Positions 7,334 through 20,673 of a stretch of 32,000 bases of DNA are shown in pieces. Positions within the stretch are counted from its first letter, which is position 1, and the number at the start of each line of letters is the position of its first letter. The position numbers and the translations under genes are program-made. This stretch comes from an uncultured bacterium (GTDB taxonomy: Bacteria; Margulisbacteria; WOR-1; CAVSGV01): positions 780,001 to 812,000 of the forward strand of contig OY969425.1 of the NCBI GenBank assembly GCA_963699255.1. Direction: 5' to 3'. The notes under the pieces are model-generated. The model ran no database searches and was not told the origin of the DNA. It was given only the letters and a program-made list of their open reading frames with translations.

Positions 7334-8005
7334 TTATATATTATTTTCAATAAATATTTTAAAGGAAAGATCTGCCAGTTTTTCCGGCGTCAAAATATCC
7401 AGGTTCTTTGGAACTTTATAATGTGAGAACATTAATTGCCAAGCATATTGCCAGGGAAAATTTTGTGCATTTGGACCATCCCGCTTAGCCCTTCCGAAAA
7501 GCAAAGCAACAAAATTTAGCGGATCATAAGTCCCGGGTTTCATTCCTTTTACTGTGACCGTTGTCATATATCCGGGGAAAATAATTCTTACATCATCGAA
7601 TATTCCCTGGGTCAACGGAGGGAAAACCTTAAAAATGTTGTCCCGCGCACTACTGAATAATTCTGTTATATCTTGAGGATATCCGCACTCCCCTGTTCTT
7701 CCCATTAAAGATTCGGTTTTAAAAGAAATCTCTTTATCGGACTCGTCTAAAAAAAGCGCGCTTCCCAACGTATACGCGACCTCAACATTTTTAATTTCAT
7801 CATGTTCCCTATTTTCAAGCCCGTCACACCCTGCCAGCACACAACCGGTTCTCGCGTCAACAGGATGTCGATCAAAACGGAACAGGAACGGCTTTTTCAA
7901 TATTCCGCACTCCCCATATTGGGTATTATATTCTCGCTCTTTTACCACGAAGGAATTTTTAACCTTGCGAATAAAATGCCCATATTCGGATATATACATT
8001 CCCAT
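7334..8005 (-). CDS. Hypothetical protein (223 aa, orphan)
   Basis: A long ORF in an AT-rich island, with AGGAG 9 nt upstream of the ATG. It has no signal peptide or TM segment and I recognise no family motif. Confidence 0.6.
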   Translation of the reverse strand: MGMYISEYGHFIRKVKNSFVVKEREYNTQYGECGILKKPFLFRFDRHPVDARTGCVLAGCDGLENREHDEIKNVEVAYTLGSALFLDESDKEISFKTESLMGRTGECGYPQDITELFSSARDNIFKVFPPLTQGIFDDVRIIFPGYMTTVTVKGMKPGTYDPLNFVALLFGRAKRDGPNAQNFPWQYAWQLMFSHYKVPKNLDILTPEKLADLSFKIFIENNI

Positions 8006-8175
8006 ATTTTATATCTCCTATATTTGAGAGCTTAGAATAATTGACTTATTTTCAACCCCTCATCGCTTTCTGCGTATGTTATCGATAGATATAAGTGAAA
8101 ATTTCAGAAAGTACAAATATTTGATGGGGGATTTTTGTTTTTGCTGATATAAGGGAAATCGTCCCTGCGGATCAT

Positions 8176-10317
8176 CTACATCACTATTTTAGGAAAATCG
8201 GCGATCTCAAGGTACATTCTTTCCAGGGTTTTCAGGAGCGCCAGCCGGTTGGCGCGGACCTTTTCGTTCTTGTCCATCACCATAACCTTAACGAAAAAGT
8301 CATCAACAGGTTTCGTCATATTAGACAGCTCTTTCAACGCCGTTTCATAATCATTCCTGCCGATGGCTTCGCCGATGCGGGCATTGACGTCAAGATGAAG
8401 TGCATATAACGATCTTTCATCTTCCTGGACAAAATCAGCTTCAACCACGTTTTCCCTTGTCGCGTTGACGGCCAGCCTCGATATCCTGTCCGCCGTGAAA
8501 ACTATTCCCTTGAACCACTCCTCCTTAAGGCGCCTTGACAGGACCTTTGCTTTTTCGCAGACATCGAGCACATCTCCAAAATGAGAAAGCGCCGCGTCGG
8601 CGACATCATATTTTGTATTTCCTTCAATAAGGACGGCTTTTACTCTGGCCGCTAGAAAAGAGAGCACGTCGGAAGTGACTTTCTGGGCATTATTATATTT
8701 AACGTTCCCCGCCGTGAATATCTCGCCCAGGAAAAGCGGCTCATATAACTTGTAAGACTTTCCGATGAGGTCTTCCAGCTCCAGGTTTATTTTCCTGTTC
8801 AGGAGAACGCTGACTATGCCCTGAGCTTGCCTTCTTAGCGCAAAAGGATCTTCGGAGCCGGAAGGGATAAGGTTTATGCTGAAACATCCCACGATAGAGT
8901 CCATCTTGTCCGCTATCCCGACCACCGCGCCTTCGATGGAAGACGGCATGATATCTTCGGAATGCCTGGGAAGGTAGTGCTCGAATATGCCGTTCGCTAT
9001 CTCCTTCGGCTTGCCTTCGAGGAGGCTGTACTCCCTTCCCATAACTCCCTGGAGTTCGGGCAGCTCATATACCATCTGGGTCAGGAGGTCCGCCTTGCAA
9101 ATCTGGGCGATGCGCTTTATGTTCTCTCTCTGGCTCTGGTTAAGCTTGAGTTCTTTCGCTATCCAGTCGGACAGCGCGACGATCCTCTCCACTTTTTCGG
9201 AAACGGAACCCAGCTTGTCGTAAAACGCGACCTTCTCGAGCTTCGGCAAACGGTCTTCAAGGAATTTTTTTCTATCTTCGTCAAAAAAGAATTTAGCGTC
9301 ATAAAGGCGGGCCGCGAGAACTCTTTCATTGCCTTCCTGCACGTTCTTCAGCCCTTCTTTCCTAACTCCGTTCGCGATATTAACGAACAATGGAAGTATG
9401 CGCCCCGCTGGATCGGAAACCGATATGTATTTCTGGTGCTTCTTCATTACCGTAACGAGTACATCCTTTGGAAGGCTCAGGTATTCTTTTTTAAAGCCGC
9501 CGGAAAGCGGCACCGGCCATTCCACAAGGTAATTGACCTCATCAAGGATGTCCCCTTCGATCAAAGCCGTTCCGCCTTTTCTTTTTGCCGTCTCCCTGAC
9601 CATGTCCGATATCTGCGCCTTTCTCTCGTTCTGGTCAAGCATCACCTTGCCTTTTAAGAGGGCGCTCTTGAAATCCTTGATGTTTATGCCTTTCGCGGTA
9701 TTTATCGTTATCGGCTTCGAGCCGAAGAACCTGTGGCCGAACGTCTTATTTGAGGACCTTATGCCGGCTATCTCAAAGTTCATCACCTTTTTCCCGCAGA
9801 CAGCAAGTATCCAGTGCAGCGGGCGTATGAACTTAAAATCCACGCTCCCCCATCTCATTGAGATGGGAAGATAAAGCGATCTGATGAGCTTCGGAAAAAG
9901 CGATCCAAGGACCTTGTCGGTCTCGATCCCCTTTTCCGTGACGGACGCAAAAACAAATTCCTTGTCGCCGACCTTTTTTATCTTCAGGTCTGAAACGGAA
10001 ACTCCCTGGCCGTTCGCGAATCCCTCCCCCGCCTTAGTCGGGGCGCCGTTTTCGGCGAAAGCCACCTGTTTGTGAGGGCCCCTGACCTCTTTTTTAAGAT
10101 CGTCCTGCTTATGCGGAAGCCCCTCTATGTAAAGCACAAGTCTTCTGGGCGTGCCGTACGTTTCTATCGATCCGTATAACAGCCTTGACGCCTGAAGTTC
10201 TTTTTCAGCCTTTTGTTTAAGGTCGGCAAGTATTGCCGGCATGAACCTGGCCGGAACTTCCTCAAGGCCGATCTCCAGTAAAGCATTTATTTTTTTGTTT
10301 GTTTCCGTTTTTTTCAT
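8176..10317 (-). CDS. glyS: Glycyl-tRNA synthetase beta subunit
   Basis: 713 aa with LLEIGLEEVPARFMP...GTPRRL near the N-terminus, full-length GlyS architecture, and a position downstream of glyQ. Confidence 0.95.
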   Translation of the reverse strand: MKKTETNKKINALLEIGLEEVPARFMPAILADLKQKAEKELQASRLLYGSIETYGTPRRLVLYIEGLPHKQDDLKKEVRGPHKQVAFAENGAPTKAGEGFANGQGVSVSDLKIKKVGDKEFVFASVTEKGIETDKVLGSLFPKLIRSLYLPISMRWGSVDFKFIRPLHWILAVCGKKVMNFEIAGIRSSNKTFGHRFFGSKPITINTAKGINIKDFKSALLKGKVMLDQNERKAQISDMVRETAKRKGGTALIEGDILDEVNYLVEWPVPLSGGFKKEYLSLPKDVLVTVMKKHQKYISVSDPAGRILPLFVNIANGVRKEGLKNVQEGNERVLAARLYDAKFFFDEDRKKFLEDRLPKLEKVAFYDKLGSVSEKVERIVALSDWIAKELKLNQSQRENIKRIAQICKADLLTQMVYELPELQGVMGREYSLLEGKPKEIANGIFEHYLPRHSEDIMPSSIEGAVVGIADKMDSIVGCFSINLIPSGSEDPFALRRQAQGIVSVLLNRKINLELEDLIGKSYKLYEPLFLGEIFTAGNVKYNNAQKVTSDVLSFLAARVKAVLIEGNTKYDVADAALSHFGDVLDVCEKAKVLSRRLKEEWFKGIVFTADRISRLAVNATRENVVEADFVQEDERSLYALHLDVNARIGEAIGRNDYETALKELSNMTKPVDDFFVKVMVMDKNEKVRANRLALLKTLERMYLEIADFPKIVM

Positions 10318-15817: not shown

Positions 15818-16531
15818 TTGCATATCAAAACCGATAAACTTATAAAATCTTATCACGGAAGGAAAGTCGTCGACGAAGTCTCCATCGAGGTCGAACAGGG
15901 AGAGATAGTCGGCCTTCTGGGACCCAACGGGGCCGGGAAAACAACGACGTTCTACATGGTCGTCGGCCTGGTCCGCCCGAATTCCGGCACCGTCTATCTA
16001 GGCGAAAAAGACATAACAAACATCCCCATGCACTTCAGGGCGCAGAGCGGCATAGGCTACCTGCCCCAGGAACAGTCGGTCTTCAGGAAGCTGACGGTTG
16101 AAGAGAACATCCTTGTCCTCTGGGAGCTGATGCCGCACATGGCGAACAATCAGGACATCGCTTTGATATTTGAGGAGCTTGGGATCTCGCATCTCAAGAA
16201 AAGAAAATGCTACGAGCTCTCCGGCGGCGAGATAAGAAGAGTTGAAATAGCCAGGGCGCTTGCCACGCATCCCTCGTTCTTATTGCTTGACGAGCCGTTC
16301 ACCGGGGTGGACCCGAAGACGGTATTTGACCTCCAGAAGATAATCGTCATGCTGAAAAAGAAAGGCATCGGCATACTGATAACCGATCACAATGTAAGGG
16401 AAACCCTTTCCATAACGGACCGCGCGTACATTATTCACAAGGGCAAGGTACTGATATCGGGTTCAAGCGATCAGATCGCCGGAGACGAGACCGCGAAAAG
16501 GCTCTATCTCGGCGAAGAATTCAAGATGTAA
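15818..16531 (+). CDS. lptB: LPS export ABC transporter ATP-binding protein
   Basis: TTG start preceded by GGAGGAG. It has the Walker A motif GPNGAGKTTTFYM, GIGYLPQE.S.F..LTV.EN, the signature LSGGE.RR.EIARAL and Walker B LLLDEP. The size of 237 aa is typical of LptB. Confidence 0.9.
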   Translation: MHIKTDKLIKSYHGRKVVDEVSIEVEQGEIVGLLGPNGAGKTTTFYMVVGLVRPNSGTVYLGEKDITNIPMHFRAQSGIGYLPQEQSVFRKLTVEENILVLWELMPHMANNQDIALIFEELGISHLKKRKCYELSGGEIRRVEIARALATHPSFLLLDEPFTGVDPKTVFDLQKIIVMLKKKGIGILITDHNVRETLSITDRAYIIHKGKVLISGSSDQIAGDETAKRLYLGEEFKM

Positions 16532-17619
16532 TGATAAAGATCATCGATCGCTATATATTCAAAGAGCTGTTCGATCCTTTTCTTTTCGGGCTCGGGGCCT
16601 TCACCGCGATACTTTCTGCAAGCATGATACTCTTCGACCTTGTACGTGCGGTCGTTGTAAGGGGCATGCCCCTTCTCACGGCCGTTCAGATATTCATATA
16701 CAGGCTGCCGGGGACGGCGGTTTACATATTCCCCATGGCCACGCTTCTCGCGGCGCTGCTCGCGTTCGGCAAGCTCTCCTCGCAGAGTGAGATAATCGCT
16801 TTTAAAGCTGGCGGAATAAGCCTGTACAGAATAATGGTCCCGGTCCTTACCTTCGGTTTTGTGATCAGCCTGGTTACTATGTTGTGTTATGAAGTCATCG
16901 TCCCGCGCGCCAATCTCGCCGCGACCGATCTAATGATGGTAACACAGGTAAGACAATCGCCCAAGATACAAAAGAACGTCCTTATTCCCGAAGTGGAAAA
17001 TGACACCCTAAAAAGGATGTTTTTCGCGGGATCCTTGAGGGGCGATCTGATGGAGAATGTGGTAGTTGAAGAGTTCACGGACGGAAAACTCTCTCAGATC
17101 ATCAATGCCAAAGAAGCAAAATGGGAAAAAGAAAAGAACACGTGGCTTTTCAAGAACGGGATAATCTATCTCTTGAGCGATACGGGAGAATACAAACACC
17201 TCATCAGGTTCAAAGAACAGTACATGACGATCAAATATTCGCCCGCTGATTTTTACATGGGGGACAGAAAGCCCGAAGAAATGAACATGATCGAACTGAA
17301 CAAATACATACAGCTGAAAAAGAAGATGGGTGAAAGCACTCTTGACCTTCAGATCCAGTATTTTCTCAAAGGGGCGATACCCTTCTCCTGCCTTGTGTTC
17401 GTCCTTCTCGGGGCTCCGCTGGGACTGTCCCCGCAGAGAAGTTCTTCTTCGATCGGGCTTGGGCTTTCTGTTCTGATCGTCGTCTTCTATTACTTCATTA
17501 CATTCGCCGCAATGGCCGTAGGCGAGCTGGGTTTAATACCGCCGATAGCCGCAGCCTGGCTTCCGAACATCATCACGGGAGGCATAGGAGCGTATATCCT
17601 GAACAAATCGGCTCAGTGA
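16531..17619 (+). CDS. LptF/LptG family permease (YjgP/YjgQ)
   Basis: 362 aa with the IIDRYIFKELF... N-terminus, six hydrophobic segments and a central periplasmic beta-jellyroll-like region. It is translationally coupled to lptB through the overlap ATGTAATG. Confidence 0.85.
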   Translation: MIKIIDRYIFKELFDPFLFGLGAFTAILSASMILFDLVRAVVVRGMPLLTAVQIFIYRLPGTAVYIFPMATLLAALLAFGKLSSQSEIIAFKAGGISLYRIMVPVLTFGFVISLVTMLCYEVIVPRANLAATDLMMVTQVRQSPKIQKNVLIPEVENDTLKRMFFAGSLRGDLMENVVVEEFTDGKLSQIINAKEAKWEKEKNTWLFKNGIIYLLSDTGEYKHLIRFKEQYMTIKYSPADFYMGDRKPEEMNMIELNKYIQLKKKMGESTLDLQIQYFLKGAIPFSCLVFVLLGAPLGLSPQRSSSSIGLGLSVLIVVFYYFITFAAMAVGELGLIPPIAAAWLPNIITGGIGAYILNKSAQ

Positions 17620-17642
17620 ACATAGATATATCCAAGAAGCAC
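17613..17642 (-). repeat. Displaced relic of an lnt 3' end (direct repeat of 18590-18619)
   Basis: The minus strand reads GTG CTT CTT GGA TAT ATC TAT GTT CAC TGA (VLLGYIYVH*). The real lnt end reads GTG CTT CTT GGA AGG ATA TAC GTT CAC TAG (VLLGRIYVH*). The two share 23/30 nt, are ungapped and are in the same frame. Confidence 0.7.
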
Positions 17643-17674
17643 GCAAGTTCGCTCTGATATCCTAGTATCTCGGA

Positions 17675-18415
17675 TCAATACCCAAAATCGATCCCAAATC
17701 CTAATGTAAAAGGCGTCCTTCCTGTCTTCGATGAAAATGAAGCGATGACCGTTGGAAATCCTAATTCAAAATATAAATTGATATAAATGTCCTTCTTTTT
17801 CTCAATGGTGCCGCAATAAGCCCTCTTCTTCTTTATCTTTAATACCTGGACATTTGTTCCAACTGACAAATTAACATCTATAAGACCACGCACTGTATCT
17901 GCTCCCTTTTGATCGGACAGATAGTTGGAAGTAGTAGTATAAATAAAATCAGGCCCTGCTTTCACGTACGGAGACACTCTCATGATCCCGGGTGAGAAAC
18001 CCGCGATAACATAAGGGCTGAACCAGCAAGCGAACCTGGTGTAAGGATATCCTTTTGAGGTCTCTGCGGCTGGCCCGGAAGCAGCGTTCCCGGATCGATC
18101 AGGCTGCGCGAAATTCACAACGGTCCACTCGCCCCCAAATCCAACATTATCATTAATCGCTCTTGTTGCCTGTGCGCCATAACCGTACCCCGTCAAAGTA
18201 TAAGGACTGATCACTCCAAAATTATTCAGAATAATTCCATTCATTTTGAAATCGAGCCTGGATGGGATTGCCTGGTCGGGCGGCACAGGCCTCTCAAACT
18301 CTGGCGGCTCGGTTAGCCTCTTGGTTTTGTCTTTCCCTTTTTTGTCATGCCCCTTAACATAAAACATTGAGAAAATAGAACCTGAACTATTATTCATTGA
18401 GATTGGGTCGCTCAT
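17675..18415 (-). CDS. Hypothetical protein, outer-membrane beta-barrel-like C-terminal region (246 aa)
   Basis: AAGGAG lies 6 nt upstream of the ATG. The C-terminal ~190 aa are Gly/aromatic-rich with an alternating pattern and end in FTLGFGIDFGY, an OMP-type terminal aromatic. The N-terminal ~55 aa are charged and Pro-rich with no signal peptide. Confidence 0.55.
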   Translation of the reverse strand: MSDPISMNNSSGSIFSMFYVKGHDKKGKDKTKRLTEPPEFERPVPPDQAIPSRLDFKMNGIILNNFGVISPYTLTGYGYGAQATRAINDNVGFGGEWTVVNFAQPDRSGNAASGPAAETSKGYPYTRFACWFSPYVIAGFSPGIMRVSPYVKAGPDFIYTTTSNYLSDQKGADTVRGLIDVNLSVGTNVQVLKIKKKRAYCGTIEKKKDIYINLYFELGFPTVIASFSSKTGRTPFTLGFGIDFGY

Positions 18416-18466
18416 TTATTCTCCTTTTTCATTCCTGTTTCTTGGGCCGATCCTGCATTTATATCG

Positions 18467-18497
18467 ATTATATTCTGCGGAGATTTCACTCTATCAA
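18467..18497 (-). promoter_or_regulatory. Possible promoter of the 246-aa ORF
   Basis: On the minus strand: TTGATA (18492-18497), 19 nt spacer, TATAAT (18467-18472). The spacer is longer than optimal. Confidence 0.3.
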
Positions 18498-18526
18498 GAA
18501 CATTATTAGGGGAATATAAGGATGAG

Positions 18527-18571
18527 AAGAATCCCCTCCCGCTTCGCTCGTACCCCCTTTATTAAAGGGGG
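18527..18571. repeat. GAGCGAAGCG-type element plus an 8-bp hairpin downstream of lnt
   Basis: The minus strand of 18527-18556 reads GGGTACGAGCGAAGCGGGAGGGGATTCTTC, which shares the GAGCGAA(A)GCG core with the element at 15737-15799. CCCCCTTT-ATT-AAAGGGGG (18553-18571) is a perfect 8-bp stem with a 3-nt loop. Confidence 0.5.
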
Positions 18572-18589
18572 ATGGGGGGATGGGCACGC

Positions 18590-19960
18590 CTAGTGAACGT
18601 ATATCCTTCCAAGAAGCACGCTGGCCTGCTCAACATTTGATCTTTTAACTACCCTTCCCAGCGGATCGATTATCGCGGATATCCCCGTGTTCGCGGCCTG
18701 AACAACGTACACGCCGTTCTCGACGGCGCGCATCTGCGACGCCTGGATATGCTGATAGAGCGCGGCCGAATCAAAGAACCAGGCATCGTTGGTGGCCACC
18801 AGAATGAACCGGGCTCCCTTTTTCACCTGATCCCTGACCAGATACGGAAAAGTGGATTCGAAACATATAGCGACCCCTGCCTTGACCGCACCCAGGTCTA
18901 TCAGCTGTGGCTTGGGGTTGGAGTTATAATCCTGCGCGAAGAGCTTATCCTCCCCCAGCAGACGATAGGAGATGGGCCTCAGCGGAAGGTATTCTCCAAA
19001 AGGAACAAGCCTTTGTTTGTCGTACCTGCCGATCAGCTGTCCGCTTTTTGAAAATGCCACGACCGAATTGTATATTTTATCTCTTTCCCTGTAAGGAGTG
19101 CCGATCATGAAGAACGCGCTGCCACCGGCGATCAGCTTTTCTATCTTTGAATGTATGGCATTCTCCTCGAAGAGGTAGGTTGTAACGGCGGTCTCCGGCC
19201 AAATGACGATGTCCGGCTTCGACAGCAGGGCTTTTCTGCTGAGCTTTTCCTGGACGCTGACGATATCGAGAGCGTTCCTGTAATCAAGCTTTGTGTCCTG
19301 GGAAATATTCGCCTGGATAATGGCAACACTGACCGACTTCCCGGATACCTTGAAGGCATGAATCCTGTAATATCCAAACCCTGCGGCTACGGCCAATATC
19401 AAGGCCGCAAAGCAAATATTCCTGAGCTTTCCGGCTAGAATATCCTCGGCCACGGCTTCATTGAACAATACGATCAGGAAAGTTATCCCATAAACCCCTG
19501 CAACGCTCGCCAGCTGCAGAACGGGAAGGAAACCTGCCTGGGAATATCCCAGCCCGCCACCCGTCACTCCGTAAGGCCCAAGCGACCTTAACCATTCAAT
19601 TGCCGTCCAGATAAAAGGTATAAGAAGAATATTGAACTTCGTCAGTCTGGTCGAAAAATACTTCGTTATCCCGGCAAACGCGGCCACAAAAAGAGCCTGG
19701 AAAACCGCCAACATTATCCACGCAAATACCGCCCACGCGCCCGCCCACTTTGACAGGGTTACCATCCAGAAAAGAACTCCCCCAAAAAATATGACGCCGC
19801 TCATCGCTCCGCACATGACAGCTTCCGATTCCGATCTTGCCCTTTTTATCGAAACAAGAAGCGGTACGAGCGCGACGTAAGCAAGCGGAAAAAGGTTGAA
19901 CTTGGGGAACGACAAGGTCAGCAGCAAACCGGAAATAATAGCCGGAATAAAATTCATCAT
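18590..19960 (-). CDS. lnt: Apolipoprotein N-acyltransferase
   Basis: There are multiple N-terminal TM segments and a C-terminal nitrilase-like domain with WPE, K and the catalytic Cys in VAICFESTFP. The track start is 19978. The ATG at 19958-19960 forms an ATGA overlap with the upstream lipoprotein stop, so I prefer it. Confidence 0.9.
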   Translation of the reverse strand: MMNFIPAIISGLLLTLSFPKFNLFPLAYVALVPLLVSIKRARSESEAVMCGAMSGVIFFGGVLFWMVTLSKWAGAWAVFAWIMLAVFQALFVAAFAGITKYFSTRLTKFNILLIPFIWTAIEWLRSLGPYGVTGGGLGYSQAGFLPVLQLASVAGVYGITFLIVLFNEAVAEDILAGKLRNICFAALILAVAAGFGYYRIHAFKVSGKSVSVAIIQANISQDTKLDYRNALDIVSVQEKLSRKALLSKPDIVIWPETAVTTYLFEENAIHSKIEKLIAGGSAFFMIGTPYRERDKIYNSVVAFSKSGQLIGRYDKQRLVPFGEYLPLRPISYRLLGEDKLFAQDYNSNPKPQLIDLGAVKAGVAICFESTFPYLVRDQVKKGARFILVATNDAWFFDSAALYQHIQASQMRAVENGVYVVQAANTGISAIIDPLGRVVKRSNVEQASVLLGRIYVH

Positions 19961-20673
19961 TGCACCATGACCTTCCAATTCAGTATATCCGCGCTTGGAC
20001 TTATCCCCGTATCCACTTCATCGCTTCCTGATACAGTGGTACCCGATATCGTGTACACATAAGAAGTCGAAGGAGAACTGTTCATGGGGGACAGGTTATC
20101 TTCAACTAATTTCGTTCCTTTGTCAACAGTGACAAAATCAAAATTCAATCTCTCCGTAAGGGTCCCCAGCTTGCTCATGTTAATAGTAAGAAGTATTTGG
20201 TTTGGATCAGCTCCGCTCCAGGTGGCTATGACCTCTTTAGTTGGTGTCGCCTCGGAAGTGAAAGATCCTTTTACGAACGAGAACGCGTTTCCGTCAAGCA
20301 CTACATAGCTCTTCCATGTCGGATAATACTGGCCGTAATAGTCCACGTCGGGCTGCGCCGGAGTATCTCCAGGCTCAACGAACTGGGTCGGCATGAAAGG
20401 AAGGATGGGCGCAGAATCGTTATTGAACAATATATAATATTTATTGAGAGAGGTATCGATATTGCTCCTGAAGTCGATCTCTATCGTTATGTGCTTTCCG
20501 GGCGGAAAAACCGGCGTGACGACCTTCGCGCAACCGCAAAGCGCGGTTACAATTACCAATGACCAAATTCCAATAACCAAACAATTAACAAATTTCAATG
20601 CCCAATGATCAGGTTTTGAATTTAGAATCTGCTTATTGCTTGGAACTTGGTTATTGGTTATTGGTAATTTCAT
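19957..20673 (-). CDS. Putative lipoprotein (238 aa), function unknown
   Basis: It has a hydrophobic segment plus a lipobox-like LVIVTALCGC-AKV. The start ATG overlaps the lptD-like stop (TGATG) and the stop overlaps the lnt start (ATGA). The N-terminal ~40 codons are encoded by a palindromic element. Confidence 0.65.
   Translation of the reverse strand: MKLPITNNQVPSNKQILNSKPDHWALKFVNCLVIGIWSLVIVTALCGCAKVVTPVFPPGKHITIEIDFRSNIDTSLNKYYILFNNDSAPILPFMPTQFVEPGDTPAQPDVDYYGQYYPTWKSYVVLDGNAFSFVKGSFTSEATPTKEVIATWSGADPNQILLTINMSKLGTLTERLNFDFVTVDKGTKLVEDNLSPMNSSPSTSYVYTISGTTVSGSDEVDTGISPSADILNWKVMVQ
20551..20669. repeat. 119-bp MITE-like imperfect palindrome inside the 5' end of the lipoprotein gene
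   Basis: It has perfect 10-bp termini, AATTACCAAT (20551-20560) and ATTGGTAATT (20660-20669), with 12/18 matches in the next 18 nt of the arms. It shares the 10-mer CAAATTCCAA (20564-20573) with the glyQ-glyS palindrome (10388-10397). Confidence 0.6.

Follow-up and report, generated by a model that had tools for sequence, protein, structure and literature searches.

In the 32,000-nt stretch of DNA analyzed here (the window), which belongs to a genome represented by a single contig of 1.77 Mb, the permease gene lptF/G and lnt, the gene for apolipoprotein N-acyltransferase, converge on each other with one gene between them, an open reading frame (ORF) for 246 amino acids that lies on the strand of lnt and is called ORF246 below. 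The last codons of lnt are found twice, once at the end of lnt itself and once on the far side of ORF246, where they reach into the end of lptF/G. An earlier note on this DNA regarded the segment between the two copies as an insertion, or the remnant of a larger island, bounded by a duplicated and coding-preserved end of lnt. The features that the following argument relies on are these, in window coordinates:

15818–16531: lptB
16531–17619, plus strand: lptF/G permease gene, 362 amino acids (Pfam LptF_LptG, E 7e-84)
17613–17644, minus strand: relic of the ancestral 3′ end of lnt (VLLGYIYVH*), the left-hand repeat copy, a 25/30 match to 18592–18621
17645–17674, minus strand: 30-nt spacer from the ORF246 stop to the relic, the right end of the insert (read directly)
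17675–18415, minus strand: cargo gene ORF246, 246 amino acids, a clade-restricted orphan without a family match
18421–18426, minus strand: AAGGAG ribosome-binding site, 5 nt upstream of the ATG
18489–18462, minus strand: promoter-like GTGAAAT-N16-CGATA, conserved upstream of ORF246 homologues
about 18530–18582, minus strand: dispersed palindromic element of about 55 nt, with the same core at eight genome loci
18590–18621, minus strand: functional lnt 3′ end (VLLGRIYVH*), the right-hand repeat copy
18590–19978, minus strand: lnt, apolipoprotein N-acyltransferase, 462 amino acids (Pfam LNT_N and CN_hydrolase, E ~1e-34)

Read directly on the minus strand, positions 18619–18590 are GTGCTTCTTGGAAGGATATACGTTCACTAG, which encodes VLLGRIYVH and a stop codon and ends lnt, while positions 17642–17613 are GTGCTTCTTGGATATATCTATGTTCACTGA, a second copy of that end encoding VLLGYIYVH and a stop. 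The two copies are identical at 23 of 30 positions in the register of the earlier note, and a repeat search of the window reported the direct pair as 17615–17644 and 18592–18621, 30 nt long and 977 nt apart, with 25 of 30 identical, because the match extends 2 nt more (GC) toward the body of lnt. The positions, frames, and stops claimed for the 30-mer were all reproduced. The local alignment of the copies has a score of 35, which none of 2000 shuffles of the partner reached (mean 14.2, standard deviation 2.1, maximum 26), and block shuffling of the 1.77-Mb genome gave three direct pairs scoring 33 or more at spacings of 300–6000 nt, or about 0.05 per 32-kb window. No third copy was found in the genome with up to 9 mismatches in 32 when a degenerate 30-mer and both copies were used as queries, so the repeat is not a dispersed one. 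Just two other direct pairs in the genome have both copies at ORF stop codons 0.3–6 kb apart, and these resemble duplicated intergenic regions; there is thus no sign of a general process that duplicates gene ends. One detail of the earlier description has to be corrected, however. The stop codon of the relic (17613–17615) and that of lptF/G (17617–17619) are separate, and what overlaps is the reading frames, by the 7 nt TCACTGA, which are the last 7 nt of lptF/G with its stop included. Apart from these 7 nt the relic is noncoding today.

The relatives found through lnt carry names within Candidatus Margulisiibacteriota and, for the class, Saganbacteria/WOR-1. Four further genera of this family (G001, G003, G004, and G005) show the same 7-nt overlap of lnt and lptF/G, TCACTGA, with no gene between the two, and the last codon of lptF/G and the last codon of lnt end on the same base there. 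The same overlap without an intervening gene was observed on 13 metagenome contigs (L040–L045, L047–L049, L189, L190, L192, and L193). In total, such an empty site is present in more than 15 sister lineages (about 17 were tallied), and lnt was found directly convergent on lptF/G in every sister lineage outside the clade that carries ORF246. The lptF/G gene of the window is 78–93% identical to the orthologues that abut lnt in these relatives, and the register of the relic against lptF/G is identical to that of lnt in the empty sites. When an ancestor-like 33-mer was composed from the lnt end of the sister genus G005 and the flank common to the empty sites, the relic differed from it at 3 of 33 positions and the present lnt end at 5 of 33. 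The suggestion that lnt and lptF/G once abutted tail to tail is therefore borne out by the empty sites in relatives, by the matching geometry of the relic, and by the greater similarity of the relic to the ancestor-like sequence.

The opposite polarity, in which ORF246 would be ancestral and lost from the relatives, or the repeat would be a chance or functional motif (a terminator, a dif-like site, or a dispersed element) and not a scar at all, is contradicted by the data and seems extremely improbable. It draws on the fact that in class-level relatives (L177–L186) a gene does separate lptF/G from lnt, but that gene, which follows lptF/G and leaves a spacer of about 350 nt before the convergent lnt, encodes a DUF3084 protein, lies on the lptF/G strand, and is unrelated to ORF246. 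No DUF3084 gene is present in the source genome. Moreover, ORF246 has no homologue in 40 relatives and forms one cluster among 1.84 billion representative proteins, with no member outside the clade, and its loss would require many independent deletions, each of which restored the identical 7-nt overlap. As for a functional motif, the repeat is absent elsewhere in the genome, no terminator-like site was found, sister lineages have not conserved the relic, and the locus lies about 300 kb from the terminus inferred from GC skew. What the DUF3084 arrangement does suggest is that the abutment of lnt and lptF/G is itself derived within the order. Certain genomes among these class-level relatives hold extra genes at the junction, namely, for a PP2C-like protein, an FHA protein, and a DUF6036 nucleotidyltransferase.

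In a tree of lnt, the five carriers (the window, L034, L035, L037, and L038) form one clade with support of 100/99, whose sister group is G005, a genus with the empty site (support 95/91). The monophyly of the carriers argues for a single insertion, at the root of this clade. The insert is present in all known members of the clade, and the synonymous divergence (dS) among them, 0.4–1.0, indicates that the insertion is old. The insert is thus ancient and fixed in a genus-level clade, and it is no recognizably mobile element. The relic has fared differently in each lineage: 25 of 30 positions remain identical in the window, 15 of 17 in L034, where an in-frame TAA has arisen, and 14 of 17 in L038, whereas 8 nt remain in L037 and nearly all of it has been deleted in L035 and L036, where 7 nt separate the ORF stop from lptF/G. 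The homologous spacers between the ORF and the relic are 7–45 nt long in L034, L035, L037, and L038. In-frame stops and deletions of this kind refute the idea that the relic is preserved as coding sequence under selection, and its apparent coding preservation in the window is a matter of small-number luck together with the 7 nt held in place by lptF/G.

It is very probable, then, that a one-gene insert of about 0.9 kb entered at the 7-nt overlap at the base of this clade, that the end of lnt was duplicated, and that the displaced copy has decayed since. In the ancestor, lnt and lptF/G would have converged with the overlap TCACTGA, and the piece of about 0.9 kb, carrying ORF246 preceded by a promoter and a ribosome-binding site of its own, would have entered precisely there, in the orientation of lnt, and would have duplicated the last 30–40 nt or so of lnt plus the overlapping stops. 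In this way, lnt would have kept a full 3′ end (18590–18621), while lptF/G would have kept its own end followed by a useless copy of the lnt end (17613–17644). The relic would then have decayed at differing rates in the daughter lineages, with the cargo gene retained by purifying selection.

The same point has been used more than once. If the insertion in the carrier clade is called event A, a second insert (event B) is present in one of the carriers, L035, in the form of an extra 1161 nt between lnt and the ORF246 homologue. Its ends are 51-nt copies of the lnt end (1535–1585 and 2696–2746 of the contig) that are 82% identical and align with a local score of 59, compared with a maximum of 27 in 2000 shuffles. 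The downstream copy contains an in-frame TAA and continues into what had been the left end of the older insert, and the newer insert is the one closest to lnt. Its left boundary, at about −35 from the lnt stop, is near that of the older event. The L035 scaffold has a gap of 10 N at 2755–2764, but both copies are upstream of it and the evidence for the duplicate is therefore untouched. The cargo gene encodes a transglutaminase-like/TPR protein and appears to be frameshifted. Between 1715 and 2673, a 246-aa ORF overlaps a 73-aa TPR ORF, and a 102-nt TPR repeat spans the frame change; the two probably constitute one frameshifted gene of about 320 aa. No homologue of this cargo was found at other lnt sites, and its best match is a 48%-identical paralogue in a native TPR family, one gene of which is located at 1.379 Mb of the source genome. 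The third insert (event C), of 1.35 kb, was found at the same point in L046, which represents the same organism as L194 and L195 and belongs to a lineage whose neighbors have empty sites. Its cargo (7480–8652, also in L194 and L195) encodes a 390-aa surface-repeat protein of the LA_2272 family (NCBIfam NF047436, E 7e-22). The duplicate in this case is a stretch of about 17 nt (TGAGCGG-AC--ATAAA) that corresponds to a relic of the lptF/G end beside lnt and is not significant alone. Relative to the lnt stop, the duplicates thus extend from about −35 to +7 in event A, from about −35 to +16 in event B, and from 0 to +17 in event C. All three cargo genes share the orientation of lnt, and the two further inserts, of 1.2–1.4 kb, are likewise without mobility genes. 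The att-like reading of the repeat is strengthened by the L035 insert with its 51-nt duplicate of the same gene end.

The signals attributed to the segment in the earlier note can be sorted with the help of these relatives. The AAGGAG element and the 246-aa ORF were confirmed, and AAGGAG, AAGGAA, or AGGGAG occupies the position of the ribosome-binding site in relatives. The proposed promoter TTGATA-N19-TATAAT is indeed present, but it is not conserved in relatives, and the motif that is conserved reads GTGAAAT-N16-CGATA. This motif is kept before the ORF246 homologues of L034, L037, and L038 and partly in L035, and it also occurs upstream of the unrelated cargo gene in L046. In the source genome, GTGAAAT-N16-[CT]GATA has 27 sites, with 0.45 expected from shuffles, and the spacing is almost exclusively 16 nt. 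It precedes genes for an rpoD-like sigma factor, an RRM RNA-binding protein, an NtrC-like regulator, and a RelA/SpoT-like protein, as well as ORF246, and the gene for an 862-aa SLH-domain protein has two tandem sites upstream. The motif may represent the main promoter form of the lineage or a large regulon. A reading as a sigma-28 or extracytoplasmic function sigma factor motif was dropped, because the sites precede the rpoD-like, RRM, and SLH genes and not a motility or stress set. The presence of the motif before cargo genes, including that of L046, suggests that the inserted DNA uses the lineage’s own promoter language. The hairpin placed between the two copies of the lnt end also exists, but it is a separate, dispersed element that is unrelated to the insertion. 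Its core CCCCCTTTAATAAAGGGGG occurs at eight loci of the genome with common flanks AATCCCCC...GGGGGATT, and at the lnt site it is found in the window and in L038/L039 but is missing in L034 and L037, which indicates a later, secondary insertion that was no part of the original insert. The element, AATCCCCC..CCCCCTTTAATAAAGGGGG..GCGAGTGAAGCGAGCGGGGGATT, resembles repetitive extragenic palindromes or miniature inverted-repeat transposable elements (MITEs), and other loci in the source genome (G000) include those at 466.8, 552.1, 1429.6, 1438.2, and 1664.0 kb; the copy at 1438.2 kb has a tandemly repeated 3′ half.

The route by which the insert entered is less clear than its history. We slightly favor, at a chance just short of even, a Campbell-type integration, in which a small circle bearing its own copy of the lnt 3′ end would have been integrated by a single crossover. 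A crossover between the lnt end and the copy on the circle would leave direct repeats of the shared block and restore lnt, and it might be catalyzed by a recombinase acting in trans or proceed by short-homology recombination. The model is based on the independent insert of L035, which likewise sits at the lnt end, shares the orientation of the first, and has a 51-nt duplicate that begins at about −35; it explains the reuse of the site, the common orientation, and event B, where nothing forced a duplication.

Several observations nevertheless weigh against this model. Neither an integrase nor a transposase nor terminal inverted repeats were detected in the insert or at its borders by the family and repeat searches of the window, and all six genes for tyrosine recombinases (PF00589) in the source genome are at least 70 kb from the locus. 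No excision product is known, and the lnt-end sequence, searched for as a 21-nt degenerate pattern, had no match in the viral contigs of IMG/VR; a phage attP as the source of the copy was rejected on this ground. The duplicate of event C, only about 17 nt long and on the lptF/G side of the overlap, means that the duplicates vary in extent, whereas a single fixed att site should give a constant one. Just past the stop, lineage-specific bases (TGAAC-CAT) are common to both L035 copies, which in-place duplication explains as well as a close-relative donor does. In addition, the lineage-typical promoter and the native paralogy of the L035 cargo imply that the inserted DNA need not stem from a dedicated mobile element.

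Many of these points are what the main rival would lead one to expect. It is possible, if doubtful, that the inserts arose by illegitimate insertion, that is, capture at a break or template switching with duplication of the target in place, and that selection filtered the outcomes: lnt and lptF/G share 7 nt and are both needed, so that only events that duplicated the overlap would have survived. Under this explanation, the convergent junction would be the sole permissive, non-operonic spot in a tightly packed cluster, and every other junction in the cluster does consist of overlapping or coupled co-directional genes, while class-level relatives hold variable extra genes at the junction where lnt converges. 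The variation of the duplicates in length and side among the three events, the lack of a recombinase at the site, the shared bases beyond the stop in L035, the native-type promoters, and the paralogy of one cargo to a native family all agree with it. Event B, however, is difficult to accommodate, since lnt overlapped nothing by then and selection alone fails to explain the duplicate; despite an available 140-nt spacer, the insertion took place within the lnt end again and left a 51-nt duplicate. That the same few bases were hit three times, each time in the orientation of lnt, also speaks against it, and we know of no transposase that makes target duplications of 30–51 nt.

The Campbell-type model has to be distinguished from integration of an island in the usual sense. 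It is well established that islands can enter a gene at its 3′ end and restore that end, as at tRNA and tmRNA genes, trmE (SGI1), and fda (ICESt1/3), while lnt is, to our knowledge, not a described integration target, and the literature yielded nothing specific. The locus resembles these islands in its imperfect direct repeats derived from the last tens of bases of the target, the intact target gene with the displaced copy at the far border, the empty sites in relatives, the atypical composition, and the repeated use of one gene end. It differs from them in that none of the three inserts has an integrase or excisionase within it or nearby, that the inserts are 0.9–1.4 kb long with one gene each, that the insert of the carrier clade is ancient and fixed, and that the extent of the duplicate varies between events. 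The same likenesses are the basis for supposing, as the earlier note did, that the segment is what remains of a larger, integrase-encoding island, which would have entered through an attP that mimicked the lnt end and later lost the integrase and most of its cargo. We regard this as very unlikely. The minimal one-gene insert is the same in all five carrier lineages, and any reduction must thus have preceded their common ancestor; to suppose three separate reductions to about 1 kb is unparsimonious; no larger element and no integrase-occupied site were seen at the lnt-lptF/G junction in about 25 lineages examined, and none of the inserts of relatives contains a recombinase. The retrieval of lnt homologues and eight look-ups of their gene context returned, in place of occupied sites with mobility genes, just empty sites or the inserts already described. 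The statement that no integrase is present was correct, as ORF246, the sole gene of the insert, belongs to no Pfam family and the nearest PF00589 gene is 70 kb away. What survives of the insertion claim is a derived segment of atypical composition with empty sites in relatives; the integrase-borne island is not supported, for no recombinase was seen. The locus is an att-like insertion scar, and without the defining recombinase it is not to be counted among the integrase islands.

Other known systems share less with the locus. IMEX elements at dif and the pdif modules of Acinetobacter plasmids are small recombinase-less cargo units with short specific flanking sites, whereas the lnt repeat is not dif-like, has no similar site elsewhere, and consists of direct copies of a coding 3′ end. 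A dif/Xer module was rejected because the cumulative GC skew peaks near 500 kb, far from the lnt locus at 797.6 kb, and because no third site exists within 9 mismatches in 32. The cumulative skew has its minimum near 1430 kb, which would make the replichores unequal (about 0.93 and 0.84 Mb), and a gene for an Xer-like recombinase is located near it, at 1426.9 kb. Integron cassettes are likewise one-gene units of about 1 kb that are stacked at a fixed point, as in L035, but the lnt inserts have their own promoters and no attC-type palindrome at their ends, no attI, and no intI; a cassette origin was rejected because of the promoter-like motif and ribosome-binding site of the insert, the absence of a nearby recombinase, and the position of the hairpin, which is dispersed and upstream of the ORF. 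An insertion sequence, a MITE, or a DDE transposon was rejected in view of the absence of inverted repeats at the insert borders and the 17–51-nt duplicates.

The cargo gene, ORF246, has no match in Pfam or NCBIfam, and among 5.8 billion proteins it has four homologues with 63–74% identity; every one of them is encoded between lnt and lptF/G, or beside whichever of the two genes the contig reaches. The length is kept at 239–248 aa in the clade, and the ratio of nonsynonymous to synonymous divergence (dN/dS) is 0.25–0.44, compared with 0.10–0.15 for lnt. As judged from these sequence comparisons, ORF246 is a real gene that evolves rapidly under purifying selection. Its GC content at third codon positions is 0.45, versus 0.60–0.68 in most neighboring genes, and its codon score is at the 8th percentile of the long ORFs of the genome. 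An origin by tandem duplication of lnt was dropped, without a direct comparison of the two, since a genome search with ORF246 returned itself alone and the relic and the ORF are in different frames.

An AlphaFold (AF2) model built from five sequences, of low confidence (predicted local distance difference test score [pLDDT] 41.6, predicted template-modeling score 0.36), has eight long strands after a disordered, polar N-terminal stretch of about 50 residues. The top Foldseek matches of this low-confidence model are NspA, OmpA, OprF, PagL, Ail, OmpW, and OmpX, with E values of 1e-3 to 4e-2, and without exception they belong to the small outer-membrane barrels. The weak model suggests, as a lead only, that the product might be a small 8-stranded outer-membrane β-barrel added to an envelope-biogenesis cluster. 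ORF246 resembles small outer-membrane barrels such as the OmpA N-domain, OmpX, NspA, OmpW, PagL, and Ail in its eight predicted strands and C-terminal aromatic residue (…GIDFGY), but it differs from them in having no sequence-family match. The assignment is further burdened by the pLDDT of 41.6 on which it rests and by the N terminus, in which no signal peptide is visible by eye, the first 50 residues (MSDPISMNNSSGSIFSMFYVKGHDKKGKDK...) having no hydrophobic core. Taken whole, the explanation that combines the insertion history, the Campbell-type integration, and a barrel as cargo is in our estimation somewhat more probable than its negation.

Whatever the mechanism, the locus provides an unusually clean and datable record of the entry of a gene into a compact genome at a place where two essential genes share bases, with the ancestral state, the scar, and the stepwise decay of the scar all visible across relatives. 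It is a clean evolutionary case that a specialist would not find surprising; the known pattern of 3′-end integration is extended to a new target, lnt, and to a new uncultured lineage, and current understanding stands. At least three hits on the same bases by inserts free of mobility genes suggest that genes in this uncultured phylum are gained either by a site-specific route or through a strong selective funnel at convergent overlaps, and ORF246 is a candidate lineage-specific envelope component within a cluster for lipoprotein and lipopolysaccharide transport. A more far-reaching proposal, which we think unlikely, is that the 3′ end of lnt is a landing site of recombinase-less one-gene cassettes in this Margulisiibacteriota family. 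If that were true, each cassette would bear a lineage-typical promoter and a 30–50-nt copy of the lnt end and would stack on others as in L035, with an integron-like outcome; movement would need either a recombinase acting in trans or the recombination of excised circles through short homologies; and small, streamlined genomes would be able to gain genes for the envelope or surface without disrupting overlapping essential genes.

The 63-kb contig of the relative L187 ends in dispersed intergenic repeats directly after lnt. In the source genome, an island of about 11 kb (L197, 1534–1546 kb) is located between the tmRNA gene and smpB and encodes a DpnII-like restriction enzyme with an N6/N4 methylase, an OLD-family ATPase-TOPRIM protein, an ORF6N protein, and a papain-like peptidase. 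The intergenic repeat modules at the edge of this island, which also surround dapB, have further copies at 67, 69.5, and 1209.7 kb, and they are also those that follow lnt in L187.

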